Notes: generated by a model from the letters alone, not told the origin. DNA of 64,000 bases from Cenococcum geophilum (GCA_050273025.1 CP158635.1:15624001-15688000); one strand, 5' to 3'. Shown: positions 2,853-64,000, counted from the stretch's first letter. A program made the numbers and translations.

Positions 2853-2889
2853 CTAATTAGTAGACGTACAGATTAGGAAATACGCAATA

Positions 2890-8787: not shown

Positions 8788-8874
8788 AGTTGCTATTGCG
8801 TATATACTACAAATAGCCTAGAAGTAGACTTAACTTTAAAGTATAGATTAGTCTTCTTTTTAGAGTTGCTCTAG

Positions 8875-9048
8875 TATTGGAACGTTAATTATGTAACGTG
8901 GTCACGGGACCACGTAGCGAGGTTAGCTAACCTAACCTTAGAGCAACCCCTTACTTCTAGTAAAAACAAAACAACTACCAACTTTAACACCGCATACGTA
9001 CCACTATAAGTGATATTCGTGCACGTTGATAAAGCGAGTATACCGACA
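8875..9048 (+). repeat. 3' LTR of Copia-1
   Basis: TATTGGAACG...TACCGACA. Collinear with the 5' LTR, and the differences are transitions. Confidence 0.97.
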
Positions 9049-11479: not shown

Positions 11480-14400
11480 TTATTTCTAGAATTTAGCTCT
11501 AGAGACCGCCTAATAAGTAGGGAAAGTTGTTTAGGGGAATTTCTATAGTATAGGATCTGTTTTTTTCGCGCCTAAGAACTACTAGGAATAACTATTCTCT
11601 AGCATTTAATATAGCTCCTAGTCTCGCTTTAGGATTAAAGGTAAAGTTTAACAATTAAGGAAGGTTATTTAGAGGAACTTCTATAATATAAGACCCGTTT
11701 TTCTTACGCCCTAGAATAACTAGGAATAATAGTTCTTTTAAATTGGTATTAGAATTAAAAGTAGAGTTTAATAGCGGTTTTCGGGTGCGGCAATTATGTA
11801 TAGGGGATAACTTATATATAGATAGGGAATAGTAAGTCCACTAGAGATAATGCTTTATAGCGCGCTTTAAGTTTAACTAACCGCCGATAGGCGTTAATAG
11901 TTACACTATATACTTATAGACATTATTACCCTCGCCTTTATTATCTATGTCGCTACTATTGTTATTATAATTTTCGGCTTTAGCTAAATCGTTAGCAGGA
12001 TTATAAAGAACTTAATTTAAATAGTTACTAACCTTATTATAGGGTAGTATAGTGTTACAGGGAGAGAAGTACTAAAGGAAAGGGCTAGTAGGTTGCGCAG
12101 TAGAGGCCGCCTAGTTATTAGTATAGTTATAGAGGTTAAGGATAAGACTAGGAGAAAAGGTTTTATAAAAAAGTAATTTTTATTACTTTATAGGCCTAAG
12201 GTTCTTAAAATTATTAAAGCTATAATTAATATTTTTTAGTTACTTAAGCTAATTAAGTCTCCGCTTCTTTAATATTAATAATATACTTCTTAAGTTTGTT
12301 TTCTTACGCCCACCCTTATTAGCTAATAGGTTATCTATATTTATATTTATTAGTCTAGGGTTATAGTAATCGCAGTCTTTATAACTTACTAGCGCCCTTT
12401 ACTTTCCTAGCTTTTAAAGACTCTTAACTAGTAACTAATATTACGGGTTCCTAACTAAGCTGCGAAGTAGTTCTATTATAACGGCTATTAGCTAAGTTAT
12501 CGCTGTCTAGTAATATAGGTTTAGTATAGCTGCATATAGGTATATAGAAGAGCTCTTTTAACGCTTCTAATAAGGGTAACTTATTATTATTATTACTGCT
12601 ATTATTTCTATAATCTTTAGCTTCTAGGTCTAAGTTAGCTATATTATCTTTAATAACTATTAGATCCGCTACTACTTATTAGATATACACAGATACTAAA
12701 AAATAATAGGAAAGTGCTAGGATAAATTACCTTAACTACTTCCCCTACTACCACTTATATCGTAGATATCTTTATCCTCGCTATCCCTGTTATCCTTATT
12801 ATTATTCTTCTTATAATTATATTTAAAATCTATAGACACTTTATTAGGCGGAATATTTAAATTAAGGCCCTATATAGAGTAGAGTACCTAAGAGTAGCAA
12901 AGCTTAATACGCCTTGGGATCGTCTTTTAGGTAAAAATAAGGTCTATTAGACTTCCTCTAAAGTATACCCACGCTTATTATTAGGGCTGTAGGTTATATA
13001 ATACTACTAAGGGGCTTTTAGCTTTTCTTAAGTAGTAGTATAGAAATTAATTAAACGAAATTTCTAAAGAGAAACAGTGTTCGTTGCTATTACTTAAGGG
13101 GAATTACAGGATTTTAAAATACGCGCTAGTCCTACCTTTACCGCTAGCTTTCGCCTATAGCCTAGACTTCTTAACTAGCTAAGGCATCTAATATATGCCG
13201 TTTATAGGGTAAAGGTCTATAATGGCCTAGACCTACTACCTAATTAATACCTTTAGCAAATTATAGTTAGAATAGCGCCCTACCTACGCAGCTAAAATAT
13301 TTAGCTCTAATAAGGCCGTCGTATTGGTATTTCTTAATAAATGGCAGCGCTAACGTATTTACTCCAACCTAATAGAATTAATCTCCCGTATTAATTGTTA
13401 GCTAAATATAAAGCCTAATATATATACGCGTCGCTAGATATCTATAACAGAAGAAAATAGTATCCTTATTAGTGGTAAGCGGAGCCCCCTAATACTAACT
13501 ACTCTGATACGCCTACCGCCCGCATTAAATAATCTAGACCTACTAGCAGCGAGCGGGGCTCTTACTTTAAGACGCCTACTATATATATAATTATCAAATA
13601 ATTTAAGTATACTAGTGGCTCCCTACTAACCCCTCCGCTATTAACACACCTACCCTCTTATATTATTAAGTAATTTAAACCTACTAGCAGTAAGTAAAGC
13701 TCTTAAATACTAATCGCTTTATTACTAGTACGCCTACCGCCTATATAATTAAGTAACCTACTAGTAGTAAGCGGGACCCTCTAATGCTAATTACTCTATT
13801 ACTAGCACGTCTGCTAGCTATACTAAGTAATTTAAACCTACTATATAGCGAGCGAGGCTCTATTAAGTGACCCAAATATATTAATAGTAGGCGGTATAGA
13901 ATACTGCGTAATACTTACCCTTCTAATATAGACTGGCTAGTATTAATCCTTTATAGTTATATACTCTAACCTAAAAGACTAGACCTTTACCGCTTAAACG
14001 TTTTGTAAGTAGTAAGGTAGCTAAATAGTCCTTTACGCCTAAGTCTATAGACTATACAGTATCCTTAAAATGCCCGTTTTAATACAACCGTATAAATAGA
14101 TAGGTATGCGTATATAGCTACCTAAAAAGCTACTTATAAGGTCTAGTTCTAATAGCCTAGTAGGGTATAGTCGCTTAAATATTTAGCTAGGTTTTTACTA
14201 AGTAACTTAGTAGCATATCCTTATAATATAGGTAGCTTTGACTATTAGCGGACACTAAAGCTATTAGCTCTATACGATATATCCTAGGAAAAAAGAGCGC
14301 GTAATTAAATTATATAACGTATGCTTAACCCAGTAAAGAAGGCAGGGCGAGGTAGTACGCCTATCTATCCCTACCTAGGAAGGGTATATAAACGACTACG

Positions 14401-14700
14401 GAGTAGTCTTAATTAGGAATTAAAAGGAGAAAGGTAAGAGAGAAAGTAAAATTGTAAGGATATATACGCGCTAAAAGGACAGAGGTAGCACTAAAAAAAC
14501 TTAATAAGCATTAGAAAGTTGCTAATACTAAAGGCTAAAGTTAGGAGAGGCTAAAGGAAAGGCCGTAATTAACTATATTAATTATTAGTTAAAGATATAA
14601 AATAGATACTTATATATATATTAGCGCTAAGGGGCGAATATATTTTAATGCGACGGTAATGAGTAATAAGAAGAGGGGGAGGCGCGGTATAAAAAAAGAT
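11480..14700 (-). pseudogene. Unknown-family gene, copy A (paralogue of 52050-55433)
   Basis: Collinear nucleotide blocks are shared with 52050-55433: gaaaggccgtaattaactatattaattattagt (14557 vs 55287), agggctagtagg..agaggccgc (12081 vs 52675) and cgcttctttaa (12323 vs 52886). Confidence 0.75.
13470..13862. repeat. Degenerate ~65-80 bp tandem repeats inside unknown gene copy A
   Basis: Recurring acctactagcagcgagcggggctc...acgcctaccgcc...aagtaatttaa unit, about 5-6 copies. Confidence 0.75.
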
Positions 14701-14949
14701 AAGGATAAGAAGAAAATAAGGCCCTTTAAGGTAAAGATTGGGGGTCTTAACGGAGCTAAGGTTCGCTAAGTTCTTATAGACTAACCGCTCCTTACTAACA
14801 AATTCTCTACTTTATAGGGGATAGCCGTATATACGTACTTTCCCTACCCTATAACCAAATTCTACTATAGGGCGTCTAATTTATAAGATAATCCTTATAT
14901 AAGACAAACTTCGCGAATATTATCTCCTCTACATTACTATCTTTTAGCT

Positions 14950-17821
14950 AACTTTTACTTTTAGAGCTATTTTTCTTTCTTAAAGGAGGCAAGTAAAAAA
15001 TAATAAAATTTAGCTTAAAAGATTATTAATTAATTTTTATTTAATAATACTAGACTAGCTAGTACTATAGTTCCACATTAATATCTATTTCCTTTTTTAT
15101 CGCTCTAATCTTTACTAGTATTTAATTTCTTCTCTTTTTACCTATTTTTATATCTTTTTCTATCTCTATATATAATTCGTTAAGCCCTCCTTTTAGTATT
15201 TCTAATATACTGTCCTCTAGATATTTATACTCCCCTAAACCATTAAGAAACCCTTTTAACGTTTCTTTAGTATTTTATAATGCAATTTTAGGATCTCTAT
15301 ACCCTATTAATATTAGAACTACTTTAGTACTACTATACTAGAACTTACTTAGATTTATTCTTTTCTTTTCCCTATTCTTTTTTTTCTTTTTTTTATTCTC
15401 CTTTTTCTTCTTCTCCTCTTTATTCTTTTTCTTCTTTACCTTTTTTTTTTTCTTCTTCTCCTTTTCCTTTCTTTCCTTTTCCTTCTCCTTTTCCTTCTCC
15501 TTTTCCTTCCTTTCCTTTTCCTTCTTTTTCTTTTCCTTTTTCTTCTCCTTCTTCTTTTTCTCCTTTTTCTTATCCTTTCCTTTCTTCTCTTTTTTTTTTC
15601 TTTCTTTCCCTTTTTTTTTTAGCTTTCTTTTCTTTCCCTAATTCTATTAGCTTCTTATACTTTACTACTAGGGAATTTTCCTTACCCTTTATTGCTTCCC
15701 CGTCCTTATTATCTTCTTTATTATTCTTATTATCCTTATTACCTAAGTTATCTAAGTTATCTAAGTCGTTTAAGTCGCTATTCTCTTCTTCCTCTAATAA
15801 TTTATCTAATAAGGAGTTATCCTTATTATCCCTAAAGGAGGACAAGCCTAAGTTATCCTTATTGCCCTTATTATCTAAATCTAAGTTACTATCTTCTTCC
15901 TTCTCTAATAACTTATCTAATAAGGAGTTATCCCTAGAGGTAGAGTTATTAGAGTTATCCTTAGAGGAAGATAAGTCTAAGTTATCTAAGTTATTCCTAA
16001 AGGAAGATAAGTCTAAGTTATCTAAGTTATCTAAGTTATCCCTCTTTTTAAATTTCCTCTTACTTATCCGCTTCTCCCCCCCTATTAGCATCTATTACTT
16101 TCTAGTATATTTTAGTATACTATTAGGCTCTAGTTACTTCGCCTTCTTCTAATACCCCTCTAATTCCCTATTAATAAGTCCTAATCCGTACTTATTGTAT
16201 AATACGGTCCTTAAAAACTACCTCTTTACGCCCTTTACCTTAATATATATAGCCGTAATTGGTATATTAGTGTAATAGGGTGCGTTATTTTAACTTTTAA
16301 GAAGACATAACCTTTTAGGCTTAATTCTCTATCCATTAATACTATACCTTTAATAGTAATGCTTATAAAGGGGACATCCTTAATATACTTCTTTATGCCT
16401 TTTATAATTAGCTTAGAGTATTTATCCTTATAGATTTGTAAAATCCCCTTACCGAATCTTCCGCTTATAATAAACATATACCTTTTATAACCGTTAAATA
16501 TCTTTAGATGCTAGATTAAGAGCTAATAGCCGCTATAACTTACCTTTTACTAGCCCCTAAGCTACTACTATTAGCTATTTAACGAGACTTAACCTCGCTT
16601 CTTTGTCGCTGCTAAAGGTTTAAAAGTTTTATTAGTGTTATCTTTAGTAGCCTTTATATAATCCTTCTTTTTTCCTTTCTTCTTCTTTACTTCCTTTTTT
16701 CCCTTCTTCCCTTTCTTCTTTTTCTTCTTCTTTTTCTTCTTTTTTTCCTTCCCCTTTTTCTTCTTCCCCTTATCTTTCTTAGCTTTTTTCTTCTTTATAA
16801 ATAGGTCCGATTATAAAACGCCTACTACTCCACCTACTATTTTTTAAGAATATTATCGTTAAGAGTAAGGGTAAAAGGAAGAAAGTTTAGAAGATCCTTT
16901 CTTTATTCTCTATACTAAGCTACTAGTAATTTAGTATTAATTATATCTAGGTAGTTTTTCGCTATCCCTATACCAAAATTATCTAGTTCTCCTTTTATTA
17001 TATATATAAGTATATTTCTTAAATCCTTTAGTAATAGAAGAACTGTCCTATAATAAACAGTGCCTAAGAGTTTATAGCAGTTATATACTTTATTATATTT
17101 AATAGCTTCTTAATTTACTTTTCTTAGGTTATTAAAAGTTATAGAGTTATCTCTAATAACACCTCGCCAAAAAATAGGAACTAACTTTTTATTTTAGTGG
17201 TTAGTATAAAATTCACTAACTTAATTAGGATTAAAATTATTATCTTTTATTTCTTAATCTCCGTCCTTATCTATTGTTAGATCTTATAGCGTAGTTAAGG
17301 ACTTACTACGGCTAAACCCATTATTTAGCTCTGGCCTCTTTATACCTTTTTTTTTACTACTAGAAGAATAGTTAAAGTTAATTAAACCCTTCTTAGGGGT
17401 CCAATTCTTTATTTCTTTAACATATTCACTTAGAATATTAAGTTTTTTAGCAACGTTTATAATAACTATACAAAAGTTAGTCGTATATTATATATATATT
17501 AAACTCTATACTTTAAAGAGCCTTATCGCCATTATTTACGCCACTCCGCTTTAGATATACTTCCTATACTACCTTCCGCCATACTTATATTTTCTAAATA
17601 GGACTTAGGTTGTCGCCCTTCTTAAGTTAAATAAATTTTAGTAGACTGGCATCGTTATCACTCTACTTAAGAATTTTGTTAATCTTATTCTGGCGTATTT
17701 GGTTTTCTTATTTAGGTTTAGCTAGTTTTTTAGCCCTATCTCCCTTTCTCTATTACTTCTTTTAGAGATTATTATTAGGGAATAGGGTCGCTTATAGAGT
17801 AGGGGGCGCGCTATTAGCCAT
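14950..17821 (-). pseudogene. Unknown gene with Lys/Glu-rich and Asp/Ser-rich low-complexity tracts
   Basis: ATG at 17821 (MANSAPPTL...). Purine-rich KE tracts at 15350-15640 and 16660-16800, and a DN/SD tract at 15700-16050. ORFs 15570-16091 and 16235-16477 are pieces of it. Confidence 0.55.
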
Positions 17822-24150: not shown

Positions 24151-27100
24151 GGTAGGTTAATTTATACGTAGATCTACCCTTACTAATTCCTTTAGCAGTA
24201 GTAACTACCCAAAAATTAGCGCCGTTCGAGGGAATTCGACTATCTTTACCCTTATAGAAGGAAGCGCTGACGTAGAGTATATCGCCCTATTGTTATCTAA
24301 AAAGCAACGCATTTCTTTAAACCCCACTATTAATATAAATATTTTAGACGCGTTACGTTATGATTTTTAATAATTAACGCCCCCTATTCTAATTCTATTC
24401 TCCCAATTTAATAATATAGTTATTACTTTCAGCCTTCTTCTTCTATCTATTATACGGACAATACAGCTAATATTTAACTATGTGACTACGCGTATTATTA
24501 TTAATTTATTATAGGAATCTTAGAGCAAGAGCGAATTAGTTAATTCTACCAATAGTAAGGTTAAGGATATTTATTGTATTCGTGCCTATATTTGAGATAT
24601 AAGGTAGGCTAAAAGTAGAACGCATAAAGGCGTCGCATAAAGGCGAATTAGTTAAGTCAAATTGCGGAAAAGCTTCGACTTCTATATCTAAGCTAAATTA
24701 GCTATCTTTTTAGAAAGGCGTAAAAAGAGCTAGCTGCGAAATAATGTCGTTCCTAGTAGGAAAGCCTAGGACTATATTTGAAATAACCTAATACTTAAGT
24801 TATTTAACAGAGATTAGAAAATTTTAAAAGGCACTAGAGATTCTGCCATTAGGATATTTAAGCATAACCTTAAGGTTAGCGCAATTCTTAAATTGTTCTG
24901 CTCCGTCTATAGTATTTAAATTTTATCTTTCCTCCCGACTATAGATGTAGAGCCCTAGCTTTGGTTTCTAAAAGTAAGCAATTACCTATAGTTAAAAGAT
25001 CTTACTAAAGCAATTGTGCTATTAGAGTAAGTCCTTAACTAATATCCATTTTAAGAAGCTAACTGGCTTAAAATATAATATAATAACAAAACGATAAGTA
25101 TAATTCTTCGTTAAGTAGCTTCTACTTCTCTAACCTAACCTTAAACGATTAGCTGAAATTAATGGCGATTTACTTAGTAGTAATATATTTTCAAATAAAA
25201 GTATATATCCTTTTACGGCGTAAGACGAGATTAGTAAATAAATTGCTACCTTAGCTATAGAGCAAGAACCACTTAATACTTTTTTTAGCTTTTTCCGTAG
25301 TAATTAAGGTAGTATTACTGTTCTATATAACTTAGGAGAAGCGTCTCTTCCAATTTATTCTACCCTCTTATAACATCACCACTATAGTTAGATGCTGCTT
25401 AGCGCTTTAGACTTCGGTATACCTAACGCGCCTTTAGTAAAACCTAAGAGCCTCCCTTACATTTAATAGCCCACTTTTATAGACCTAGGTATCCTTCCAA
25501 ACTACCTTATATTCGCGTCCTGTCTTAATTATCCTTTCCCCTATAATATTGTCAATCTCCTATTTATTGTTTAAGATTATTTTATTAATTTAGTTATATA
25601 TCACCCGGGAACCCTATAGGTAGGAATTTAGGTAGTATCGCTTTATCTAATTAGTGGCGGAGCTATTATACTTACCGTTATCTTTATTGTGCGGATTATA
25701 GGGGTTTAGATATAGACTAGTTAGTTTATTTATCTCACTCAGCCGGTATATACTCTTATTATCTAAGTCTTCTAGAGTAATTTTACCGCTTTAAACATCT
25801 AAAACGGCCTCGTTATTGTTAACCTAAGAAATATACATTCTAGATATTTTAGGGTAGGAGCTTTTTAGAAGATAATTCTAGACAATATTTCTTAATAAAG
25901 TGTTTAACGAAAAGTGGATAAAAAGAGGGTTAGAGGATATTTAGCGCTTATAAAGTTCTTATCTAGCTTTCTAATTCTAGAGCTAAGCTAGCTAATATAC
26001 ACAAATACAAAAAAAAAATATGCGAGTAGGGCGTCTAAAGATTAAAAGCCTAATCCTTAAGATAATTTTAGCATTCCCATATATATATCTCTAGCCATTA
26101 TTTTTAGAACTTAAGACTATATTTAATAAAAAATTTCTCCCTAAATTATAAAAATTAAAATGGCCCTTATACCCTAAACTTAACACTAAATATATATATA
26201 CTTCTCTTTTTTATTTTATGCGCGGTTATAGTAGTACACTATTAATCTCTAGGAGTAATTGCTAAGTAGGTAGATTACAGTTACTACAGAAATCTAGTCC
26301 TAATAAATTACAGTATTAATCAGTCTTTATTAATTGAAGTTGGGGCAGATATACCGGCAACTACGCCTAAAGGAGGCGAGCTTAAAGTAGACGTTAAGCT
26401 TAGCGTTAAGATTATCGCGACTATATCTCCTACTATAACTTCCTTATCGCTAATCCATACTATTTAAGTCGGTACTTAGGAAGATCTAATATTTTCCTTA
26501 AATTAAATATCTGTGCCTATTGGAGACATTATCTACTTTTAGTTTCTTAAACTAAACTATACTATATTATAATCCTCGCTTAAGAATCCGTACATACCTA
26601 ATAGGATTTTTAATATTAACTTTCTTTATTTTAACCCTAAAAACCGTATAGATAATATTATTTCCTTTTTTATCTAACATATAAGTCTATAATAGTTTTT
26701 CTGTAAATAAACGCTACTAGTTTTATATTACCACGCTAATATAGTCTTCGCTATTAACCCTAGGCCAAATATAGAAGAATTCCTTTATAATACTCGTCTG
26801 CTATAGTTTACCCTATAGACGAGCAGTATTATTAGACAGTTAACCACGAAACCGAATACTAGGAGTAGCCATTAGTAAGGAGGAATTACTAGCACTAGCC
26901 CAGTTAAGATAGCTAAAAGTTATTAAATACTAATATTATTTCCTATAAACCTAACTAACCTTAAAGGGAGTTATTGGATGGGAATAGGTAACGCTAGCAT
27001 CCCTAATAGTACTATCTTTTAACCTACCCTTTAGCCCTAGCCCTTAACTTAACTAGTAAATAGCGGGGGAATTTCTCTTCTACCTTTTACTAGTCTTTTT

Positions 27101-34760: not shown

Positions 34761-35801
34761 TATTGTTTCTTACATTATTATACTAGAAGTCCCTGCTATT
34801 AATATTATATTATAAAAACATCTTTAAAAAAATAATAAGTTAAAAATAGATAAGTTAAAAATAATAGTATAATGGAATACTAAAGCGGCTTAATAGACGC
34901 CGACTGCGATCGCCTAAAGCGCCGTCTAGTATACACCTTAGGAAAAACCCTAAACCGTGCTAAGTACCCTCCTACCTACTTATTTTGGTATAAACTTTAC
35001 TAAAGGCGGATATATTTAATCCTATAAAGGTTAGAACGCTTTAAAGAAGATATCTTATAACCTTTATAATTTGTTCTTTTATCGGTAGCTATAAAGGCCA
35101 CTTAGCAGATATATATATAAATAGTTTCCCTTTATAGCTAATAAGAATATAAATATCTACATTATCAAGGCATTATAGCTCCTCCGCTTTTTTAAATACC
35201 GTTTCCCTTCTTTTACAAATTAGTTTATAAAGTTATTTAGCCTTTACCTTTTAAATCTTCGTATCTAGGTTTAGGTATAGTATTAAGTCAATACTAGTCT
35301 GTAATTTATACTGCTTATAACGCCTAGTGCTCTTCTCGCTCTCTATATTAGAATCTAGGTATTCTATAAGGCATATAGTAACAGGATAGTAGTATAGTAA
35401 ATAATAAGACGTAAGAACTAGGGTAGGTAGAAAGCGGTATACAAAGCTTACTTTAATAAGGAAGGGGGACTTAATAGATAAGGGTAATTTTATAAAAGAT
35501 AGATATAAAGCATAGAGGCTAAGGTATTAAGGTATATAATTTATAGAAATAAAGATAATAAAAATAGAAGTCTAAAAAATATATATATAATAAAAGCTTA
35601 GCCGCGAAGTTTAATATAATAAACCTTAAAGACGTAACACTTAAAATATAAAACAACCCTAGTAGTACTGCATATAGAATTAGGGCATAAAATTTCAGAA
35701 TTAGGGGGTAATTAATCAAAGTGCCGCTTAATATAATCCATTATCTTTATAGGTCGACACTATACAAAATAGTAATTAGGGTCTAGTAAAGATTTATCTT
35801 A

Positions 35802-36053
35802 AAGCTGCCGTGCGTAAAGGACGGCAGTAATACTTTAAGATATCCTCATTCTTAGATTATAGTACTCTTTTTAGCTTAAAGGTCTATTTCTAGTTTAGCA
35901 TTCTTATCCTTAGCATATTTAGCAGGAGCATTTTATAATTACTAGTTTAATAGATTTAAATTCTTTATATGCTCTATACAATATATAGTAGTAAAACTCT
36001 AATTACTACCTTACGTAAGCTACATTCTCACTTAGCCTAGTTACGTTATACTA
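35802..36053 (+). repeat. 252-bp inverted repeat, left copy (candidate TIR)
   Basis: Aligns end to end with the reverse complement of 51525-51776, and the differences are almost all transitions. Confidence 0.93.
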
Positions 36054-36492
36054 CGTTTCTATATTTAAAGACTAAGGTAATTATATAACCGTATCTGGGT
36101 TTTAGAAATAATTAGATAAGTAATTAAATAGTGCCGTCTTCTTTTAGTAATATAATTTTATCCAATTTTTAGATTCTACCGTTTATTAGCTAAAAGCTCG
36201 GGATTAGTTATCGCTTTTATTATAGTATATTATTAGGCCCTCGCCAAGTTATACGTAAGAGGCTTAGTAGGGGCTATTACGTATAGGCCGAATTCTCGCT
36301 TAACTTCCCTCTATTCTCCCTACCTCAATTATATATTTTAGAGTTTTAGCGAATACCTTATCCGACTAAGGATAATTCTAAGTCTAGACCTTTATCTCTT
36401 ATATAAGCGCCCAAATTATAAAGTAAGGAGAATTAAAATCCCTCCCTATTTGTTTCTAACATATATATATATAGGTATTATAACCATTACAG

Positions 36493-51000: not shown

Positions 51001-51524
51001 ACCTATAGCCCTACTAGTAAGTAGATACTAATAGGAATTTCTAAAGATAAAGATATACCGGTATTTACGTTTAACGGAGTAGTAGATAGATCTTATAATA
51101 ATTCTCTAAGGCGCTAGCGTTCTTCTATATGTATAGTATAGACTAGAATAAATAAGGGCAAAGAGGAGATAAGGATAGTCCAGTATCTATTACTAGGGGC
51201 GGTTATTATGTATACGTTAGATAAGGCTAAAAGAAATAGGTGGTCACTAAGATACAGTTTTGCGTTTATTAGTTATACAAAGGATAAGCGGTATAAAGAA
51301 GTCCTTAAAGCCATTAAGAATTATATACTAATAGATAGGATATTCGTACTAATCTAGCTATATAATGTATATTCGTTTCCCTATAGTAGACTTTCTTTAA
51401 TAATTAGGTGCTTAAAAGTTAGAATAGGATAAGTAAAAGGTAGGATATAAAGCTATTTATATAAGCCGCTATAGGAGATAAGCTAGGATGCTAAAGTGTT
51501 CTTAATTAGAGCGGCATTAAGACT

Positions 51525-51776
51525 TAGTATAACGTAACTAGGCTAAGTAAGAATATGGCTTACGCAAGGCGGTAATTAGAGTTTTACGGCTATATATTAT
51601 ATAGAGTATATAAAGAATTTAAATCTACTAGACTAGCAATTATAAGATATTCCTACTAAATACGCCAAGAATAAGAATACTAAACTAGAAATAGACCTCT
51701 AAGCTAAAAAAAGCACCACTATCTAAGAACGAGGATATTCTAAAGCATTACTACCGTCCCTTACGCACGGCAGCTC
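51525..51776 (-). repeat. 252-bp inverted repeat, right copy (candidate TIR)
   Basis: Ends ...CTACCGTCCCTTACGCACGGCAGCTC|TA and is the reverse complement of 35802-36053. Confidence 0.93.
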
Positions 51777-52049
51777 TACCCTTTACTTTTATAGAGTATA
51801 CCTATAGTAATCTAACCTTAGTATACCAGACGCGTCTTTAGTAAGACTTAAGGGCATCTTTGGAATTTAAAAGCCCGCTCTTATAAACCTAGGTAGGCTT
51901 CTAAACTACCTTATATTTACACCCTAACTTAGTTATTCTTTCCCCTAGAATATTATTAATCTCCAATTTATTATCCAAGTTTATTTTATTAAATTTATCT
52001 TTTTTAGCCTAGGTATAGCGCTTTATAGTAGGCTCTAGGTTTAAAACGT

Positions 52050-55000
52050 CGCTCTAGTTATTGGCAACGCTATTAGGGAATTATTAAGGAATAATATCTA
52101 GTATATATAACCCGTTTTCCTAGCGCCTAAAAGCTACTTAGATTAACTATTCTTCTAAATTAGTATTTAAGGCGGCTCTAAGTATCGCTTTACTATAATT
52201 AGAGTTAGAGGCTAAGTTTAATAGCGGCTTTTAGGTATAAAGGCGATTATATATAGGGGATCCAGCCTAATTATAATAATTGCTACTAAGCGCAGTGCTC
52301 CGGTCAGACGTGTACATAAATAAAATTAAAGGGGAAAGGTAAGACCGCTAAAGATAATACTTCGCAGTACGCTTTAGTTTTAATCTACTACTAACGGGCG
52401 CCAACGATTCTCGTCGCCCTATATACCCGTAAGCCTTATTACTCTTATCGCTATTGCTATTACTATTATCGCCGTCCCTAGCGTTGTCATCATCCGTATT
52501 ACCGCTATCGCCGCTTCTATTGTTGCAGTTCTCGGCCTTACCTTCATCCACAACATTCTCGCCGCCCTTATTATTATTATTATAATTATAGTCTTTAGCC
52601 AAGCCATTAATAAGATTATTAAGATTATCTTATAGCGGTCTAATATTACAGGAAGATAAAGATTACTAAAGTAAAGGGCTAGTAGGCCACGTAGCAGAGG
52701 CCGCTCGCTCCTTAATACAGTTATTACTACCGCTAAGGTTAGGGCTAGGAGGGCTAGGAGGTAAGGTTCTCCAGAAAGCTAGTAATCTTTATTACTTCCT
52801 AGGCCGTAGGCTCTCGCCACCCTCACTAATAGAAGTATTAGAGATATAATTAATATTATCTAGTTACTTAAGTTAATTAAACCTCCGCTTCTTTAACTTC
52901 TTAGCTCTTAAAGACTCTTAACTAGCGCTTACTAATATCCTAAGCTCTTACCTAAACCGCAAAGCGGTTCTAATATAATGCCCCTTAGCTAAATTATCTG
53001 TTTAACTGCTATCTAGCGTTAAAGGTGTAGTATAATTATACATAGGTATATATACCTCCTCTTATAGCACTTCTAATAAAGGCAGCTCTTTATCTTCTTT
53101 ATTATCCTTATTACTACTATTATTCCTATTATCTACTAATTATTAAATAAAGCCATTATAAATTAAAGGAGATACATATACTAAATTTATAGGGCATTAG
53201 TTAGTTATTGGCTTTACTAGCCTTATTAACTTTATTAGCTTTATTATTAGCGTTACTAAATTTATTGCCCTTGGTTTCCAGGTCCGGATCGGCTGTATTA
53301 TCTTTAATAACTATTAGATTTGCTACTAGTCGTTAAAACTATATATTTAAAACTACTAGGAAAGAGGGAGAGTAGTAGGGTAATTATTAGGATAATTACC
53401 TTAACTACTTCCCCTAGAGACTTAACTATTATTTCTATCCCTATCTTCCTTGTTGTCCTTATTATCCTTATAATACTTATTATAAGCTTTCTTATAATTA
53501 TATATACGGTCTATAGGCACTTTATTAGACGGAATCTCTAAATTAAGGCCCTAGGTGGAATAACATGCCATTAAGTGCCTAAGCTTTTAATACTTCTTAA
53601 CTTTTTAGGGGGAAAAGTGGTATTTTATACTTTATCTAAGGTATACTACTTACGCCTTTTTTAGAAGCTGTAGTTATATAATACTAAGACAAAGCTATCG
53701 ATTTTCTAGGGGGACTAATATAGAAATTATTATTATTAAGTAAAATTTTAGGAGGGATATAAAATGAAGATTGAGGTAGTGCCAGCATTATTACCGTTAG
53801 AGTTGCCGTTGCTTTATAGCTTTTAAAAGCCTTAAAGGGGGAATTATAGGTCTTTTTAAGTGCACGCCAGTCCTCTATTCGCCGCTAGCTCTTATCTATC
53901 GCCCTCTACCCCTTACCCCCTGCTTGGGCTTCTTACTAAATTAAAGCACTTAATACGTACGCCTCCGGCATAAGCTAGAGTAAATTACCGTTTATAGGGT
54001 ATAAAGGTTTATAAGGGCTTAAATATCTAGCGCCTAATTAACACCCTTAGTAAATTATAATTAAACTATATCCGCCCGTCTAAGCTAGCATATTTAGCTT
54101 TAATACAGCTATTATATCTAGCCCCTTATTAGGAGGCTAGTAGCGTAAATTCCCCACCTTTATCCCTTAGTAAAGGGTAGCGCTAATATATCTATTTACT
54201 TCCTAACAATACTAGTCCAGCTAATTCTCTACGCCGCTCGTATTAGTAGGAGGTAAAGCCCTACTTATACGTCCGCGTTACGAGCTATCTATAATAAAAG
54301 GAGGTAGTATCCTTATTAGTAGCGGGCGGGGCTCTTTAATACTAACCGCCTAGTAACGGATATGCCTGCCATTTGCACGGTAATTATATATATATCCATA
54401 AATATGCTAGGTAAAAGACTATATAGGGATACTTGCCCTCCTAATGTGGCTAGCTAGTGTCGGAGATTCCTACACAGTTATGCCACTATACTATTAATCT
54501 ATCGTGCGCTTAAAAGCTATAACCTTCTAATTTTAATCCAAGTAGTTCCTACTATAGCCCTATAGCTTAGAAGGCCAGATTATTAATTCTCCGCTTTACT
54601 GCTAAGTAAGGCAGCTAGAGCTAATAGCCCCTTAGCCCTAAACTAGTAGATTAAACGACGTTACTAAAACATCTATAGTAATGCAACTATACTACTAGGA
54701 AGGTATATATAGCAACCTAAGCAATACTCTATATAATGTCCGTTTAAATAATGCCTAATATAGCCCCGCACGGCGTAGTCGCTTAAATTAGTAATCCCTA
54801 GCTACTTTTCTGTTAAGTAGCCTAGTAGGCATATAAGTTATAATGTAGGTAGCTTTAGCTATTAGCAAACGCTAAAGCGGGCTATCTAACTAATAGTGTA
54901 TCCTAGGAGAGAAACGTAGGTTACTAAAATAAGTGCGACGTAAGCTCTTTTAAGCCCTTTAGGGGGCGATACGTATACCTATCCCTCCTAGCTTAGAAGG

Positions 55001-55433
55001 AGATATAGGGCTAAGTTAAATAAGACGATGGTGCTAACGCGGCTAACGCGGCTAATAACTGCGAAATTCCCCTAACCCCCTTCCCATAAGATGGTTGCGG
55101 GCTAGCGTTATTTAGGAGGCCAAAGGAAAAAGAGCGAAAGAAAAGAGGATTATAAAGGTATATACGCGCTCGCTAGACAAGGCCGCGCTAAAAGAGCTTA
55201 ATAATAATTAAAGCTATTGGTAATAGAGGCGTAATTAGAAAACTATAGTCGTCTATATATTAACGTAGAAGAAAGAGTTACCTATTAGAAAGGCCGTAAT
55301 TAACTATATTAATTATTAGTCTAACGCGGGGGAATAAAGGAATAAATAGGCTGGACGTGCATACGTATAAGCGCTAAGGGGACGGCAGAAATGCCTTAAT
55401 GCGACTATATCAGGGATTAGCAGCAAGAAGAGG
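52050..55433 (-). pseudogene. Unknown-family gene, copy B; 5' end interrupted by Copia-2
   Basis: Collinear homology with 11480-14700. Similarity (aagaagagg) runs right up to the LTR start at 55434. Confidence 0.75.
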
Positions 55434-55616
55434 TGTTAGATAATCTGTATTCTCTGGTGGCGTAGACCGTGCACGAGTCACGTGCACGGGGCACCTGCAT
55501 TGTAAATCTCTTTATCGTAGCTCGAGGGCCCTAGATCACAAAATAAACCTCAAGTCAAGATCATCAATCAATCAACCCATTTCATCAATAAATAGCTCTA
55601 TATGAGTTATCTAACA
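55434..55616 (+). repeat. 5' LTR of Copia-2 (183 bp)
   Basis: TGTTAGATAA...TTATCTAACA is a perfect 10-bp terminal inverted repeat. It is followed by PBS-like GTTATAAGCCC. Confidence 0.95.
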
Positions 55617-58600
55617 GTTATAAGCCCGGTCCGCCGACTCAAGAAGCTATTCAGCTATTACTCAATCATTTAAAGAAATTCTACCTCATCGTCAGACTCT
55701 GACCCCTTATCGTCAAGGACGCAGACCCTAATAGAAATTCTACCTTAATCGTCGCAGGACGATCCTGACGACAAAATACCATCTCAATTCCTCCTTTGCC
55801 TATTAGTCAAATGACTCCACTATTAAGTTCATTAACTATAATCATCCTCAATAAGCCAGAAGACTGGGAACAATGGCTATGGCAGCTCCGAGCCCTCGTA
55901 GATCAGCAAATTTGGGCCCACGTTAACCCAGCCATAGAAGCACCTTAAGAAGGTCTACTTGTGAAACCACCTTATCCAAAGGTTATAAATTTTAATAAGA
56001 ATGCAACCTTATATGCACAGCTCTCAACAAATTAATAGAAAGCGTACAAGAATAGCAGACGATACTACGACTAGGATATAAAGTATTTCCTAAGATAGGA
56101 AGATTATCTTTAACAGATCCGCACCCAGATTACGTCTACAGTATTAACTTAGAAGAAGCTACTGCTTGACCCTTCCCTTATAGTTAAGGAATGGCTAACT
56201 CGGTTAAAAGAAGACACTAAGCCCTTAAGGAACTTTATAATAAGGAAGGTATAGCTATAATACACAGATTCGCTTAGGGGTCTTAAGCAGGCAAAAATTA
56301 CCTAATGGCTCAACCGATGGGAGCATGTGATAAAGATGGCTAAGAAGTACGATTTTCCACAGATAACTAACGGGATCTAGCTAATGGACCTTGCGAATGC
56401 AATACGACCTATAAGCGAAACCTATTTCGTTCTGTATATAAAGCAGGCAGATGATACTAAAAAGGCTTACTTATTAGGATACCGCAAAGTAGCAATAGAG
56501 CTATGAGAAGCATTCCAAAACCTTTCCAAAGCCGTACCTACGACGGTAAGAGGGAGTGCATTTGACGTAGACTTTATAGGAGGATCTGAAGAGGATACCT
56601 CCGCTACTAAAGGTCTAAAAGGGAAAAGGAAAAGCTTACCTTGCAGCTAAAAAAGGGCAGGGACAAATTTAATTAAAGAAGAGACGTCTTTTTCTAAAAG
56701 GTCGAAGAACCTTAAATGCCCGGCATGCGATATAAGGGGGCATACTCTTCCTAACTGTTGGTACCTATTTAAGTGTAAAAGGCCTAAGGGATTTAAAGCC
56801 GTAGATATATATATAAAAAGGGTGCTGATAAAGGTAAAGCAGGACAAGGATCTAGCTACCTAAGTAGAATAACTTAAGCTTAAGAAAATAAATGCTGATA
56901 AAGCTTAACAATGACAGGACGAGAGTTAAGAAGTTAAGATTAAGGGAGAAGCTAATGCGATATTCCTAGAATCGTATTACACTGGTTAACTCTATCCACT
57001 AAAGCTATTAACTATTCTTGACTCAGGAACCACTCTCCACATCTTTAATAACCTCTCTCGTTTTTATAATTTTAAGAAAGCTCTAAGACACAAATACGTC
57101 ATCGCAGGTAGCTTAAAAGTCCCTATACTAGGCTACGGCGATGTTACTATCTAAGTTATAAAACCAGATAAGAGCAAGGGAATCCTATGTCTTAAGGACG
57201 TTGCCTTTTATACGGACTTTAATATAAATCTAGTGTCGTTCCGTCTACTTTAAAAATAAGGGTACTACTAGGACAATAAAGGAGATAACAATCTTCTTGT
57301 TCGAAAGGACGATATAATTCTATATTAAATAGAAGAATGTCATAGATAACAGACTATCGAATACGTCTAATTAGGAAACTTGAAATCCGTATTCAATATT
57401 AGCCGTCTAACGCGCCGTTAACGGAAGCGGATATCGTTAAGAGACGTTCGTCCAGATTTAAAAGGTAATGCACAACTATGGCATCTGCGTCTAGGTCATT
57501 TAGGACCTATAAGCCTTTATTATCTAGGTCTTAATGCCCTAGGAGTTAAGCTTTAAGGCCTAAAGACGACGGAATGTTAACATTGCAGTCTCGCCAAAAT
57601 TAAGCGTTAGGTCTTAAGAAGGTTCTTAAAATAGAAAATTAATAAACCCTATCTTAACCTCTATATTAACTGGACTAACCTTAAAGAAGCGTATGCCAGA
57701 TTCGTACAAGTTATACTTATCCACAATACCTTCTTAGGGAGATCCTTCCCGTATTTTATAACGACGTATAGCAAGGAGAAGGAGACACTATAAGTGCTTA
57801 AAGATTTCATTTAATAGATTTGTCTAAGGTATAACCTTAAAGTTAACACTATTAGATTAGACAACGAGCTTAGGAGAAGGAGAACCCTTAAATAGCTACG
57901 GGCCTAAGGGATTATATTTAAGCCTTTGGCGCTATATACCTAAGCACAAAACGGTACCGCCGAACGCTTAGGGGGTGTAATTATTAAGAGAGCACGTGTA
58001 ATAAGAATTGCTGCTAATCTACCACATAATCTATGGAACGAGATAGTTAACTGCGTAGTTTACCTTTGAGATCAAACACCACGGGAAAGCAACGGTTAGA
58101 AATCGCCATATAAGAGGTTCTATACCTTCCTAGCTAATAGAAGATTAAGAAAGCCGCAACTAGCGCACCTAAAAGCCTACGGCTATAGGGCGTACGCGAT
58201 AACGTTAGACACCTAGCTAAAAAAGAAAAGGCTGAGCAAGCTAGATCCGTAAGCCCATATCGGCTACCTCGTTAGCTATAACTCTACTAATATCTACAGG
58301 ATCTGGATCCCATATAAAGGTATCGTCATCTCTATAAGGGACGTTATCTTTAACGAAAAGATATTCTTTAACAGCAAGTAAACGGATATCTTAAAGGACC
58401 TATACGCTAAATTGGACACGCTAATTAAGAAGATTTAACTTCTTAATACCCTAACTAAGAATGAGGTTCTTTTAGAAGATAATAAAGAAGTATTTAAACC
58501 GTCAATTTAAGAGGAAGACAATAACGCTAATGAGCCTATTCGAACCTTTAATAAGTTAGCCGATTTTAAGCTTGTAAGAGCTCTTAAAGATGTATATTAT

Positions 58601-60761
58601 ACGCCACCTCCAATAAAAAAAGACGAAGAATCTCTATATGCCTTCTACGTTAAGTACCCTATAAGGTTAGATATACTAGATTAAGACATTGTCCAACAAA
58701 AAGGAGACGGGTTTAACACTTAGGGGGTGTTCAACGACTCGGTTAAAGACTTATTTAAGGAAGCCTATGATAATAGGTTTAAAGACTTTGTTACCAAAAG
58801 AATTACATTAGCCTATTACGGCGCCTTTTTGGCAGGACGGAAGTTTAACCTTAATAGTTGACTTAATAACAGCAAGCTAAAATTAGGCAGAATACGCAAT
58901 GTCAGATTATATAGGAAGAACTTACCTCCGCCACCTTAGTTAATCCGAGACCTTAATACGCACCCTCTTTGAGATCAGTTCCAAGAGGCTTAACGAGCCT
59001 ACCTCCAATCTCATTATTAAATGAGGTTATTTTAAGAAATAGATAAGAAGCATACAAGGGGATAGCAGGTCCTTAGCTTAATGTAGATCTTTATTTATAA
59101 GACGGATAAGTATGGGTTTCTCTAGAAATGTAAGGCATGTTTAGTAGTCTGCGGAAATTAATAGGCCCCAGGAGACCTACCTACAAGAGCTACTATATTA
59201 GCTAGTACAACCTTCCGAACCCTTATGACGATCACTGCAAAATTTGACCTAGAGACAACACAAATAGATGCAGTTAATGCGTTTGTCCATTGCGATCTCG
59301 ACGAGGTCGTCTATATAAAGCTACCGCTAGGGTTTAATAAAGGAAAGACAGACAAAGTACTGCGCTTAAGAAAGGCCCTTTACGGACTATAACGATCACC
59401 ACTATTATGGCAGAAGAATCTCACGAGCTCGCTAATAGAATTGGGTTTTAAAGAGGTACCCTAGGAGCCGTGTGTTATGCTGAAAGGTAGAATAGTCGTC
59501 TTCTTTTACGTTAATGATATTATCTTCTACTACCGTAAGACAGATAAGAAGAAAGCTTAAGAAGCGATTAAGGAGCTAAGTAAAGAATACCAAATAAGTA
59601 CCCTTGGCGAGCTAAAATGGTTCCTAGGAATCTATATACTACGCGATCGTAGCTAAAGGCTCCTATAGCTATCCTAGGAAGCCTATATTAAGAAGATAGC
59701 TAACTAGTATAAGATAGATCTTATAGGGCGTCTTCTAAATACTCCTATAGCAGAATCTAAACTCCTCCCTACTAATTACCAATCGATCCGTCTAACGCTT
59801 TTGACCCCTAATATAGACCTACTAGTCCGTCCTAAGTCCCTACTAAGAGAAGCAGCTTCTATAATGCTATATTAGAGAAAAATAGGTTTAATACTTTATA
59901 TAGCCACTATAACGCGTCCGGATATTGCTTTCGCAGTATTATAGCTAGTAAGGTTTAATTAGGACCCTAGCCAGGAGCACTATTAAGCGGTAGATAGAGT
60001 TATCCAATACCTATATAGCACGAGGGGCAGAGCAATCTACTACGGAAGAGATACGGAAGGAATAAATAGTAGAGGGAGAGATATAAGCGATAAAGGTCGA
60101 GACGACGGAGACGGTAGAGGTAAAGCGCAATTATTTATCTATGCTAGCAATACATCATTCGCAGATAACTCCGTTAACAGAAAGAGCTTATAAGGATATA
60201 TTATAAAGCTATTTAGGGGACTAATCGCATAGAGAGCGAATAAGCAGGATATAGTGACAACGTTAAGCACAGAAGCCGAGTTATTAGCCCTATCTTAAAC
60301 AGTAAAGGAAGCTATCTTCATTAGCAGGCTATTTAAAGCAATAACGTTACAGCTAAATGAGCCCTTAATTATTAACTGCGATAACACCTAAATACTCCGA
60401 CTAATTATAGAAGACATAGCAAAACTAATCACGAAGCTCCGACACGTTGATATCTATTAATACTAGCTACGTTAGGAATACGTAAGGAGACGAGTACTAT
60501 TTCGATGGACAGTAACGAAGGAGATAATCGCCGATGGACTTACGAAGGCCCTACCCAAGCAGAGGTTTTAAAGCTTCGTTAATATAATCGGGATAGTAGA
60601 TATTAAAGAGCGGCTAAATAAGGAGAAGCAACTAGAGGACCTATGGGAGAAGGTTAGGGTGAGACGGAAGGATTTAAATAAGATTATGGTTTATTTAACG
60701 CATTAACGGACACGAGAAGGTAGTTAGCTTCATCCTTAACCAGGTTGAAGCTAAGGAGGTA

Positions 60762-60799
60762 TATTAGATAATCTGTATTCTCTAGTGGCGTAGACCGTG
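60762..60799 (+). repeat. First 38 bp of the Copia-2 3' LTR
   Basis: TATTAGATAATCTGTATTCTCTAGTGGCGTAGACCGTG matches 55434-55471 with two G>A changes, then identity stops abruptly. Confidence 0.93.
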
Positions 60800-60979
60800 G
60801 TTACAGGTCGGCTAGGCCACGCTAAAAGGTCGGCCTACTATAAGCGCTAATGCACAATCCCTGTACAGGGCAGCCTTAACTCAAAATATAAAGTCATGTG
60901 GTCAACCGAGCCTAAATCGCTTATCCTACCACATAACTTACCTTTTAATTAAAATTAACTATTATAAATAACTAGTTAT

Positions 60980-61240
60980 AATATATTTAGAACATATTTA
61001 GAACATATTTAGAACATATTTAGAATATATTTAATATATATTCTAATTTAAAATACTTCTTTTTAGTAATAATTAAAATAAAAAATTTTAAGCTATAAAA
61101 TAGTATATTAGAGTTAAATATGGCTATAAAAGTAGATTAAGTTCCTAATATATTTTAACCTAGTTCTAAATATATTCTAATTTAGTTCTAATTTAGTTCT
61201 AATTTAGTTTTAATTTAGTTCTAAATATATTCTAATCTAT
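60980..61240. repeat. Opposed arrays of 11-bp repeats (ATATTTAGAAC)n and (GTTCTAATTTA / GTTCTAAATAT)n
   Basis: About 4 direct copies at 60983-61030 and about 6 copies in the inverse orientation at 61160-61235. Confidence 0.85.
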
Positions 61241-62139
61241 TTTTAAATATATCTAATTTAAAGTTCTTTTTATTATATTTATAATTAAAAATTATTTAAG
61301 CTCTTTAGGTACTAAATAAAGTTATATTTATTATATTAATTTAAAAGTATAAATATATATTCTTAGGCTAATAATATTAGTTCTTTTAAATATAAAGGGT
61401 AAAAAATATTATAAATACCCTTAGAATTTATAATGGTTTTTATAAAATATAAGGTCTAATATAAAGAGAGTAAATAACTTTTAATAAAAGTAAAATAGAT
61501 ATTTATAGATATAATATAAATAGGTATAAAACTAGTTTTAAATATGTTTAATATTTAAAAGAGCTATAATCTAAATCTGTATTATATTTTAAGTTATTCT
61601 TTATAAGATTTAAAAAAAAAATTTATATGGTATATTTATATTTTAGTATATATATAGTTTTTAGTTATAATAAAGCAGCTTAAACTACTACCTTAAACAA
61701 TTATACGGCAACTTAGCCGCCGTTTTTGGCGGTTTATAACGCCGTTTTCTAAGGTCAATTTGCCTAAAACCCCCCAAAACCTACGGCTGGTAGCCCGAGC
61801 ACTAAGGTTGTCCGGATTGCCTATATTAGCCTAGCGCAGGTGCAAATAGAGCAAGGCACCCTTGGCCTTTATTAGCGCTAAGGTACCCCTAGGTACGCCA
61901 TATACCTATTACCATTAGGCGCCAAAATAGGCCCCTTTAAATTTGGCTGGCTAGTATACTTAAGATAGCTTCGCCCTTACTTATTAACCATAAATAGCTA
62001 CCTATCTTCTCTTCTCCCGCTAGACCTGCCTGTTCTACTTACCGTCTACCTCGCTCGTCTTTAAGCATTTATTAATAGCAGCATTACACTAACCCTCCTT
62101 TCTTTAATAGATTCGCCGATAATAATATAATATATAACA

Positions 62140-64000
62140 ATACCTATTAGACAAATACTCTTTATCTAAGGAGAGTAAATACACAGATTTAAAAACTAAC
62201 GAAGCTAGTTCTAGTATAGACTTAACCGACGTTAATACCGGTAGTAATAATAACAATAATAATCGGGCATAGCTCCTCGCTAACGAAGACTACCCGCCCA
62301 AGTACTACCTTAAATAGCTTAATACGTTTAACAAAGTAAAATATACAAAGGAGGATTATAAACCTAGCAGTACCTATCTACTTAACTGCATTAAAGAGCA
62401 GTAATGCCAGTAAGCAGCCCATCTCTTTCCGTTTCCCTGCTATATTATACCACCCTAATAGCCCTAACATATGGCATAGATTCTAGGCGTACTTAGAAAA
62501 GGACCCTTAAAAGGCCTATATAACCGTCTCTCTTTACAGTCTCCATAGCTTTTTTAACTAACTGCTTAATTAACGCTAAGGGAAAGGAGGAAGAAGGCGC
62601 CGCGGGACTAAGGTATTGAGCTCCCTTAGGATATACTAGAAGGTCTACCACCTTATATATAAAAGAGCGACTAGTGCGAAGCTTAATAGTCAGTTAAATA
62701 GGAATATATATAAGGTAAGCGCATCCTAGCTGCTTTAAGATGTTGTATACCCTAGGCTTCGGACGTAACTAATTTTAGGGGTTAGGTGCTTAGAAAGCTG
62801 GCTAAGAAGTATAACTTAAAAAAGACGGGGCTAGAGAAGCCCTATATATATATAGAGGACCTTATAGAAGTGCTGCGGACAAACCTAATAACGACTAAAA
62901 AGAGGTACTCCTATAGACGCTATAGGATACTACTCCAGCTATATCTATAACTGGGTGGTTTTACTATAAATCGGCCCCAAGCCCTCCTTAATCTCTACTA
63001 TCGGCATATTAGGGTCACGCTACTCCAGGACCTAGAGGGTGGGCCCCACCGTATTTTACTAGAATTTATATTTAAATTTATAAAGGAGTACCTTAGTATA
63101 AAAGATATATAGGTTCTTAAAGTTTTATCCTTTCCTTTTAGTTGCTACTATTTATAACGTTATAAAATAAGTACTAATACTTACCTGCTAACTAGAAATA
63201 CCTTCCCTATTCCTAAAATTATCTACAACCTATCCCTTAGCTTTAGCCCCCATATCTTCCTTCTTAGTCTCCTTTTCGCTAATTAGGCGTTCATAGTATA
63301 TAACCTTACATCTCCTAAGAAGCTAAGCAAGTTTTATATTAAGCCAGGTCGTAATAAGCTACCATTACGGCTAAATCAGAAACTAGATAATATTCCTATG
63401 TTCCGCCGGTTAGTAAGGACTCTAAATAGCTAGACCATTTCTTGTAATAAACCTCTTCTATACTTTACCCTTGCACCCTAGATTAAAGGGCTTAGGAAGA
63501 TTACTGGCTTTACTCAGGTCTCTTACCTATATTCGCTTAGATATAGTACTAAAAAGGCATTTAATAAAAATAGTAAGCTCTGTTATAACCGGCCTTTCTA
63601 TTAAAAGCACTAAAGAGAAATATAGGTAACGTTAGCAAGACTATACAAAACCTAATAATGCAGTATGCCGATATACGAACGTTCTTAAGGCACTACCTAT
63701 CGCGACGTATTATAGTAGACACATAGGCAATTATCTAAGGCCTTTAGCCCTAAGATGTATTAATATGGGCCGCTTATACTATAAGCCGTTTAATTAATCC
63801 TTAATAACCGCGGCGGCTTATAATAGAACAATCTTTATTAGTTAACGATTATCCTACTATCCGTTCTCTGCTTAAGTAAAGAGAGTAACTTAAATGCCGT
63901 TTTAAAGGTAAAGCTATAAAACATCCAAAGTATAAGGCGCTTAATGGCGAAATTAATAGGGAAAGGTAATGCTAGCGGTATGTACTTTTTAAAGATATTA
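62140..64000 (+). pseudogene. DUF3435 tyrosine recombinase (Starship 'captain'), RIP-inactivated, intron-containing, truncated by the window edge
   Basis: EDYPPKYYLK*LNTF (HPPEYY). KPYIYIEDL..TTKKRYSYRRYRILLQLYL*LGGFTINRPQALL (catalytic Arg in NRP at ~62970). VTLLQDLEGGPHRILLEF. YSLRY at ~63530. QNLIMQYADIRTFLRHYLSRR (MQHA...HYL) at 63645-63705. Confidence 0.9.

Follow-up and report, generated by a model that had tools for sequence, protein, structure and literature searches.

Where does the Starship begin that enters this stretch of DNA at its right-hand edge? The stretch, 64,000 nucleotides of Cenococcum geophilum (GCA_050273025.1, CP158635.1:15624001-15688000), is called the window below and is numbered from its first letter. 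It holds the relic of a Ty1/copia retrotransposon whose 3' long terminal repeat (LTR) breaks off at 60799/60800, followed by the relic of a captain, the tyrosine recombinase of a Starship. An initial annotation had placed the left boundary of the Starship, resolved to the base, at the cut in the LTR. This is probably wrong: the direct repeat (DR) and the terminal inverted repeat (TIR) of a relative's 5' end map to 61685-61701, and both the distance to the captain and a step in GC content agree with that position. On balance, the comparison slightly favours a 5' boundary at about 61685-61691, some 885 base pairs to the right of the LTR break.

The captain lies to the right of the Copia element and reads away from it, as the initial annotation had it:

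62132..64000, + strand: captain relic, a DUF3435 tyrosine recombinase degraded by repeat-induced point mutation (RIP); it ends with the window at about residue 531 of about 728

The first stretch of the domain DUF3435 (PF11917), on the + strand, covers 62852-63568 (E 9.4e-54, profile positions 1-210); the second, after a change of frame, covers 63625-63939 (E 1.3e-16, profile positions 212-325 of 418). Alignment by tblastn with six full-length Pleosporales homologs divides the relic into four pieces, 62159-62401, 62472-62717, 62786-63580 and 63604-63999, an arrangement consistent with introns. The same alignments place residue 9-22 at 62159-62171 and residue ~531 of ~728 at 63999; the captain would therefore start near 62132-62135, where ATA at 62132 is possibly what mutation left of an ATG start codon. 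The main frame contains 47 stop codons, and the element, its captain full of RIP-type stops, is now inactive. All matches of the six homologs fall in 62156-63999, and they reveal no second captain relic in the window.

By the criterion taken from PMC11162782, a Starship opens at its 5' end with the captain gene, directed into the element at no more than about 2-7 kb from the boundary; usually the distance is within 2 kb. Here the DUF3435 captain comes first and reads inward, at 441 base pairs from 61691 or 1332 base pairs from 60800, and a Pfam search in all frames finds no other domain in the interval from either candidate boundary to the captain. Of the captain itself 1.9 kb fall inside the window, leaving about 2.3 kb of the Starship visible.

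Forty-eight captain homologs were found. All carry PF11917, and the 47 that have a source name all come from ascomycetes. The best of them, with 53-57% identity, belong to Pleosporales (Bipolaris, Plenodomus, Ophiobolus, Alternaria, Pyrenophora). The family was looked up through six accessions (EMD84663.1, EMD96332.1, KAF2844244.1, KAF2844076.1, KAF2844126.1 and KAF2685708.1) that stand for four of the 48 homologs, P0005, P0008, P0014 and P0015: in Table S4 of PMC11162782 (Gluck-Thaler & Vogan 2024) all four are assigned to family 5 (fam05), in the 50% cluster lenflu1_KAF2676861.1. Table 1 of the same paper equates fam05 with Prometheus; Phoenix is fam01, and Hephaestus, including HEPHAESTUS_Pvar, is fam02. 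With these four homologs serving as a proxy for a tree, the captain would group with Prometheus and, its relatives being fam05, not with Hephaestus.

One of these homologs leads to a characterised end. EMD84663.1 (P0005) represents a 90% cluster that also contains EMD65867.1 (Table S4, PMC11162782), the captain of bipsor1_s03178, an element of about 187 kb in B. sorokiniana ND90Pr (Table S7 of that paper). The 5' end of bipsor1_s03178 is given there as the DR ttacta (1628578-1628583 of KB445641.1), then the TIR tcttaaacaatcta (1628564-1628577), and its captain ends at 1628063, 520 base pairs inside that end. The 17-mer formed by the DR ttacta and the TIR tcttaaacaat matches the + strand of the window at 61685-61701 as CTACTACCTTAAACAAT, with 15 identities out of 17 and a C in place of T at both mismatches, which gives the following candidate:

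61685..61704, + strand: proposed Starship 5' terminus, with a DR-like CTACTA (61685-61690) and a TIR-like CCTTAAACAATTAT (61691-61704)

At up to two mismatches, this is the single match in the window, both strands included. In a shuffle control, 12 of 100 shuffles gave any match to the 17-mer in the 128 kb of the two strands (mean 0.12); over the captain's own strand, in the 2 kb preceding its start, the probability of a chance match is about 0.002. The TIR of another fam05 element, used as a control, has no match in the window at up to three mismatches, and the combined motif of DR and TIR is absent from the other rows listed of Table S7 in PMC11162782. By eye, the segment 61694-61703 (TAAACAATTA) is the reverse complement of the core of the 3' TIR of bipsor1_s03178. 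That 3' TIR itself yields 15 matches in the window against 14 expected by chance; the element's own 3' end would lie beyond the window, and is expected to take the form of a ...ATTGTTTA-type inverted repeat and a short direct repeat.

The position of the match fits as well. It lies about 441 base pairs before the start of the captain, and in the Sanctuary element the CS10 captain occupies 366-2961, that is, it starts 365 base pairs from the 5' end (PMC12506042, supplement). The 5' direct repeat of Sanctuary, ATWHCT, is derived from the flank (PMC12506042), and the flank ACTACT at 61684-61689 fits it at five of six positions. A search of literature text for the junction and terminus strings gave, among the matches listed, only unrelated primers. 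The heptamer CTTAAAC occurs twice at the proposed terminus, 13 base pairs apart (61679-61685 and 61692-61698), bracketing a DR-like TACTAC.

The sequence between the LTR break and the captain changes character at the proposed terminus, and is divided as follows:

60800..60945, no strand assigned: 146-bp stretch in place of the LTR remainder, GC 46%, starting GTTACAGGTCGG, unique in the window
60946..61684, no strand assigned: low-complexity block, 13.5% GC, likely flank or target of the Starship
61705..62131, + strand: leader, from the proposed terminus to the captain start, GC about 43%

GC content steps from 10-15% to 37-55% at 61680-61740, and the block to the left of this step is, in 300-bp windows, the sole part of the window below 18% GC. 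According to PMC11162782, most insertions of the Prometheus family lie in AT-rich sequence and are often located within transposons; the flank 60946-61684 matches this tendency, which is not a rule. To the right of the step, the RIP indices of 61685-62134 are 1.85 (TpA/ApT) and 0.70 ((CA+TG)/(AC+GT)). Because the DR and TIR of the relative map at 61685, Starship leader is a less likely identity for 60800-61684 than flank or another element.

The same low-complexity block contains two arrays of 11 base pairs in opposite orientation, ATATTTAGAAC repeated 4.6 times at 60983-61033 and TAGTTCTAATT repeated 6.9 times at 61161-61236, which form arms of 94 nucleotides (60949-61262), 70% complementary and 126 nucleotides apart; this looks foldback or MITE-like (miniature inverted-repeat transposable element). 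A Pfam scan of 60800-62131 in every frame finds no domain and no transposase, and blastn finds no further copies of 60800-60950 or 61680-62134 in the window. Another candidate, 5S rDNA as a Starship target, was rejected: an Rfam search of 60500-62300 gave no match above noise (best mir-957, E 0.78). The window contains no tRNA genes.

What, then, happened to the LTR? The retrotransposon on the left of the break consists of these parts:

55429..55433, + strand: AGAGG, left copy of a presumed 5-bp target-site duplication, directly preceding the 5' LTR
55434..55616, + strand: 5' LTR of the Copia relic, 183 bp, TGTTAGATAA...TTATCTAACA, read directly; it matches 60762-60799
55617..60761, + strand: internal region of a RIP-degraded Ty1/copia element, with Pfam domains in frames read with X at stops
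60762..60799, + strand: 3' LTR stub of the Copia relic, the first 38 bp, 36 of 38 identical to the 5' LTR

The element is a Ty1/copia: the Pfam scan of the interior finds Pol_BBD at 57014-57265 (E 3.4e-9), SH3_retrovirus at 58148-58369 (E 1.8e-14) and RVT_2 at 59081-59710 (E 1.5e-27), all in a single + frame and in that order, with the reverse transcriptase downstream of the integrase. The pairing of the LTRs is found in two ways, by local BLAST of the window with the entire LTR as query (60764-60799, 97% identity, E 3.8e-9) and by self-BLAST of the window, in which 55425-55471 pairs with 60753-60799. A purine-rich tract, AAGCTAAGGAGG, precedes the start of the 3' LTR at 60762. The two mismatches between the LTR copies, at 55435/60763 and 55456/60784, are both G>A in TG context. 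The interior has RIP indices of 1.49 (TpA/ApT) and 0.66 ((CA+TG)/(AC+GT)). While the interior and the surroundings are strongly RIP-like, the 5' LTR (55434-55616) carries little RIP signature, with indices of 0.79 and 1.30 that are noisy at 183 base pairs.

The Copia element lies in a repeat, paralogue B (52569-55433), whose other copy in the window, paralogue A (11954-14683), reads ...GAAGAGG|GGGAGGCGCGG across the homologous point; being uninterrupted there, paralogue A serves as a proxy for the empty site. AGAGG abuts the 5' LTR and agrees with paralogue A reading through, as the left copy of the presumed target-site duplication would. Within the window this copy is present on the left only, the right side being missing together with the rest of the LTR.

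Up to 60799, where it ends ...GTAGACCGTG, the 3' copy follows the 5' LTR; from 60800 the sequence is GTTACAGGTCGG, and the 5' LTR has CACGAGTCACG at the equivalent place. The match over 38 base pairs and the switch at 60800 are thus as first annotated. The part of the LTR missing after the break is 145 base pairs long (55472-55616, CACGAGTCACGTGCACGGGG...TTATCTAACA). That 60800-60945 might be a diverged form of this remainder was tested with a RIP-aware semi-global alignment to 55472-55616, in which transitions are forgiven, and rejected: z is 0.6, and the score is reached or exceeded by 257 of 1000 shuffles and by 152 of 1000 random pieces of the window. Sensitive blastn in the 64-kb window finds no second copy of the missing 145 base pairs, nor a copy elsewhere of the continuation of paralogue A (14684-15400), with AT-rich low-complexity noise as its sole output.

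The exact base of the break is subject to a caveat, since gapped alignments with an offset of 2 nucleotides or a gap of 5 would shift it a few bases to the right. With the offset, TACAGGTCG (60802-60810) matches CACGAGTCA of the LTR at five of nine positions, the other four all being transitions (empirical P 404/20000); with the gap, GTTA(C) aligns by eye, as an alignment and not a statistic, with GTCA(C) of the LTR. A unit of 22 nucleotides that spans the break, 60791-60812 (TAGACCGTGGTTACAGGTCGGC), recurs at 60813-60834 with 16 of 22 positions identical and three of the six differences transitions; a tandem match as good spans about 3% of sampled positions in the window (empirical P ~0.03). 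We take neither the transition-tolerant match of nine nucleotides (P 0.02) nor the tandem unit (P ~0.03) as evidence. Nearby, at 60859-60870, lies a palindrome of 12 base pairs, CCCTGTACAGGG.

A clean break of this kind suggests that the Starship might begin at 60800 after all, inserted in the 3' LTR, with 60800-62131 as its leader and the rest of the LTR beyond its far end; we regard this as conceivable but rather doubtful. The LTR does stop sharply at 60799/60800, the sequence beyond is unrelated to it, and a unique AT-rich block sits directly beside the captain. The captain, reading inward at 1332 base pairs, lies within the published 2 kb and inside the range of 464-7489 base pairs of four fam05 elements (Table S7, PMC11162782), and Prometheus-family Starships are reported in transposons of class I and likewise of class II (PMC11162782). 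The repetition of the 22-nucleotide unit alongside the break could, with its P of ~0.03, mean that the end resembles its target. On this view the motif at 61685 would mark a former boundary or be conserved sequence inside the element. However, such a reading has to face the DR and TIR of the relative mapping 885 base pairs further in, where captain distance is conserved and composition steps, and no TIR-like TTAAACAAT follows 60800.

The initial annotation had pointed in addition to the TTAC at this junction, as recalling the direct repeat of some Starships. The motif is present: TTACA begins at 60801, and TTAC is the core of the relative's TTACTA. As an argument it is weak, because TTAC and TTACA are listed for fam01 and fam02, because the LTR lacks TTAC, and because the chance of meeting it is about 2%. 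The direct repeats TTAC, TTACA and TTTACA are tabulated for Hephaestus elements and the Phoenix type element; the fam05 reference Afla_Starship2 has GTAGTT. The intact 5' LTR reads GTGCAC at the site, as first annotated, whereas published models take the 5' DR from the target (PMC10104507, PMC12506042). In the window, TTAC occurs at a rate of 0.00725 per position and TTACA at 0.00086; the chance of finding them within three positions of a random point is about 0.02 and 0.003.

Another mobile element may have cut the LTR, its left end at about 60800-60804, and the Starship would later have landed in its AT-rich interior. This is compatible with a Starship boundary at 61685-61691 and would explain the break, yet we rate it as improbable on the evidence at hand. 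The lead is an end like that of Tc1/mariner, with TA at 60802-60803 followed by CAGGTCGGC and with the octamer AGGTCGGC, near that end, repeated 22 base pairs on; a TA with a CAGG-type end is typical of the Tc1/mariner superfamily. The stretch 60800-60945 has no counterpart in the window and no similarity to the LTR, and the AT-rich block with its inverted 11-bp arrays and its 94-nucleotide arms, 70% complementary, is foldback or MITE-like. Active Tc1/mariner elements with TA duplications are described in related fungi (PMC12506042). On the other side, 60800-62131 encodes no transposase domain in any frame, the window holds no matching inverted terminus, the statistics of the repeat are marginal (P ~0.03), and a TA is present at this site of the LTR only on the assumption of the 5-nucleotide gap and a prior C>T change.

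Alternatively, 60800 could be the end point of a deletion or rearrangement and no element boundary; the motif at 61685 could also be due to chance, which would make the captain a stranded fragment whose boundary is beyond recovery. The state of the region lends itself to such a history: the 64 kb are all RIP-type repeat debris, each 2-kb bin having a TpA/ApT of 1.4-1.9, nested pieces and fragments abound, and just one stop-free frame exceeds 119 codons, in sequence of low complexity. But a motif with a probability of about 0.002 for its place and strand, coinciding with the GC step, and a TTACA at the joint that a random deletion end would not lead one to expect, make this an unlikely account.

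Finally, both ends could be real. An ancestral, Sanctuary-like end would lie at 61685, and a copy would have used 60800 (TTACA) as a new upstream site of mobilisation, taking along 885 base pairs of former flank, inverted 11-bp arrays included, and entering the Copia LTR at a site like its own terminal repeat of 22 base pairs (TAGACCGTG...) rather than at the TTAC core. We consider this very improbable; if it were so, it would be a Starship that redefines its boundary and chooses its target by longer homology.

A boundary at 61685-61691 has its own difficulties. It depends on one 17-base match to one relative whose annotation is automated (starfish), and on the assumption that the starfish strings are given in element orientation, the backing of which consists of the contiguous match and the Tmar_Starship1 row of Table S1. 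It is read, within this window, from the 5' end of a single copy of the element. It gives no cause for the LTR break and calls for one further event. TTAC(A), which shares its core with the TTACTA of the relative, lies directly at the break with a chance of about 0.02 (TTAC) or 0.003 (TTACA). The 13% GC block, unique in the window, adjoins the captain and could belong to the element. For a relative in the 50% cluster of the four homologs checked, starfish puts the boundary 2739 base pairs upstream of the captain (Table S7, PMC11162782), so that a leader of 1332 base pairs is within range. The 3' direct repeats of the two elements used for comparison differ, tttacta in bipsor1_s03178 versus ATACCT in Sanctuary, and the Sanctuary paper (PMC12506042) makes no mention of the strain of bipsor1_s03178.

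Taking the motif at 61685 as a real boundary, we infer the following order of events. The region is a pile of transposons killed by RIP. A Ty1/copia element inserted into the repeat called paralogue B, as is shown by the two LTRs, the AGAGG on one side and paralogue A as proxy for the empty site. Its 3' LTR would later have been broken after base 38, either by another element starting at 60800 or by a deletion or rearrangement. A Prometheus (fam05) Starship related to bipsor1_s03178 and to Sanctuary-like elements would begin at about 61685-61691, laid out as a target-derived DR (CTACTA, or ACTACT one base to the left), the TIR core TTAAACAAT, a leader of about 440 base pairs and the inward captain. 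On the published Starship model, recombination by the captain would have placed the element at a short site similar to the element's end, here within extremely AT-rich DNA.

The initial annotation had read the locus as nested on three levels, a Starship in a Copia element in an orphan gene. The insertion of Copia in a repeat and the presence of a Starship relic stand; the Starship boundary in the LTR is probably wrong. The label of orphan gene is unsupported: a six-frame Pfam search of paralogue B gave no match, and its stop-free frames do not exceed 119 codons. Paralogues A and B, about 60-70% identical and both heavily mutated by RIP, are a RIP-mutated repeat present twice in the window, and not an evident gene.

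The rest of the window is of the same nature. GC content is 24-42% per kb, and every 2-kb bin carries the RIP signature, with (CA+TG)/(AC+GT) of 0.23-0.68 beside the TpA/ApT values given above. The one stop-free frame of more than 119 codons, 15328-16152, has 274 codons and is a low-complexity stretch; a working gene in the window is unlikely. Tandem, strongly C-skewed repeats occupy 15324-16797 (GC skew -0.54 in 15001-16000), and 15324-15635 resembles 16625-16797. Two direct repeats of 182 base pairs, 2676-2857 and 8872-9053, 93% identical and 6.2 kb apart, probably represent a second retrotransposon's LTR pair. Immediately to the left of paralogue B is a fragment of a shared element; other repeat pairs are 35800-36056 with 51522-51778 (86%, inverted) and 25417-25668 with 51821-52075 (72%, direct).

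The biological significance of the locus is small. RIP-degraded Starships, and Starships in AT-rich transposon debris, are already described (PMC10104507, PMC11162782), and the relic is an ordinary one. Its use lies mainly in method: a familiar motif of four bases and a neighbouring repeat that breaks off cleanly are insufficient to call a Starship boundary, and the likely boundary shifted by about 885 base pairs once the terminal repeats of the closest characterised relative of the captain were compared. In one RIP-rich genome of Pleosporales the starfish survey counted zero tyrosine recombinases (PMC11162782). Protein homology carried through stop codons, together with short terminal motifs, is a way to place dead captains and their ends in the annotation of such RIP-rich Pleosporales genomes.

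Compared with known systems, the retrotransposon is like Ty1/copia elements in having its integrase before its reverse transcriptase, RVT_2, SH3-like and Pol beta-barrel domains in one frame, a 183-bp LTR with TG...CA ends and a 5-bp target copy; it differs by a 3' LTR shortened to 38 base pairs and a coding region destroyed by RIP. The Hephaestus family, whose target is TTAC(N7)A (Urquhart et al. 2023, PMC10104507), recalls the TTAC(A) at the LTR break (60801-60805). Unlike it, the captain homologs that were checked are fam05 and not fam02, the proxy empty site, the 5' LTR, reads CCGTGCACGAGTCACG and lacks the TTAC(N7)A target, and the better-supported terminus lies elsewhere.

Sanctuary, the B. 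sorokiniana element that carries ToxA, is closer. It has a DUF3435 captain with a C-terminal C2H2 finger, and homologs of the captain in the window are named 'C2H2 finger domain protein'; its captain starts 366 base pairs from the 5' end, and its 6-bp ATWHCT fits ACTACT at five of six positions (PMC12506042). The copy in the window, by contrast, is dead, and is likened to Sanctuary by captain distance and flank repeat. With respect to bipsor1_s03178, the differences are the RIP decay of the window copy (53-57% protein identity, 47 stops in the main frame) and the mismatches of the motif, C in the window versus T in the relative. The likenesses are a captain that shares the 90% cluster of P0005 and the 50% cluster of all four homologs checked, a 5' DR and TIR that match the window at 15 of 17 positions, and, in both elements, a captain that lies a few hundred base pairs inside the end and reads inward.

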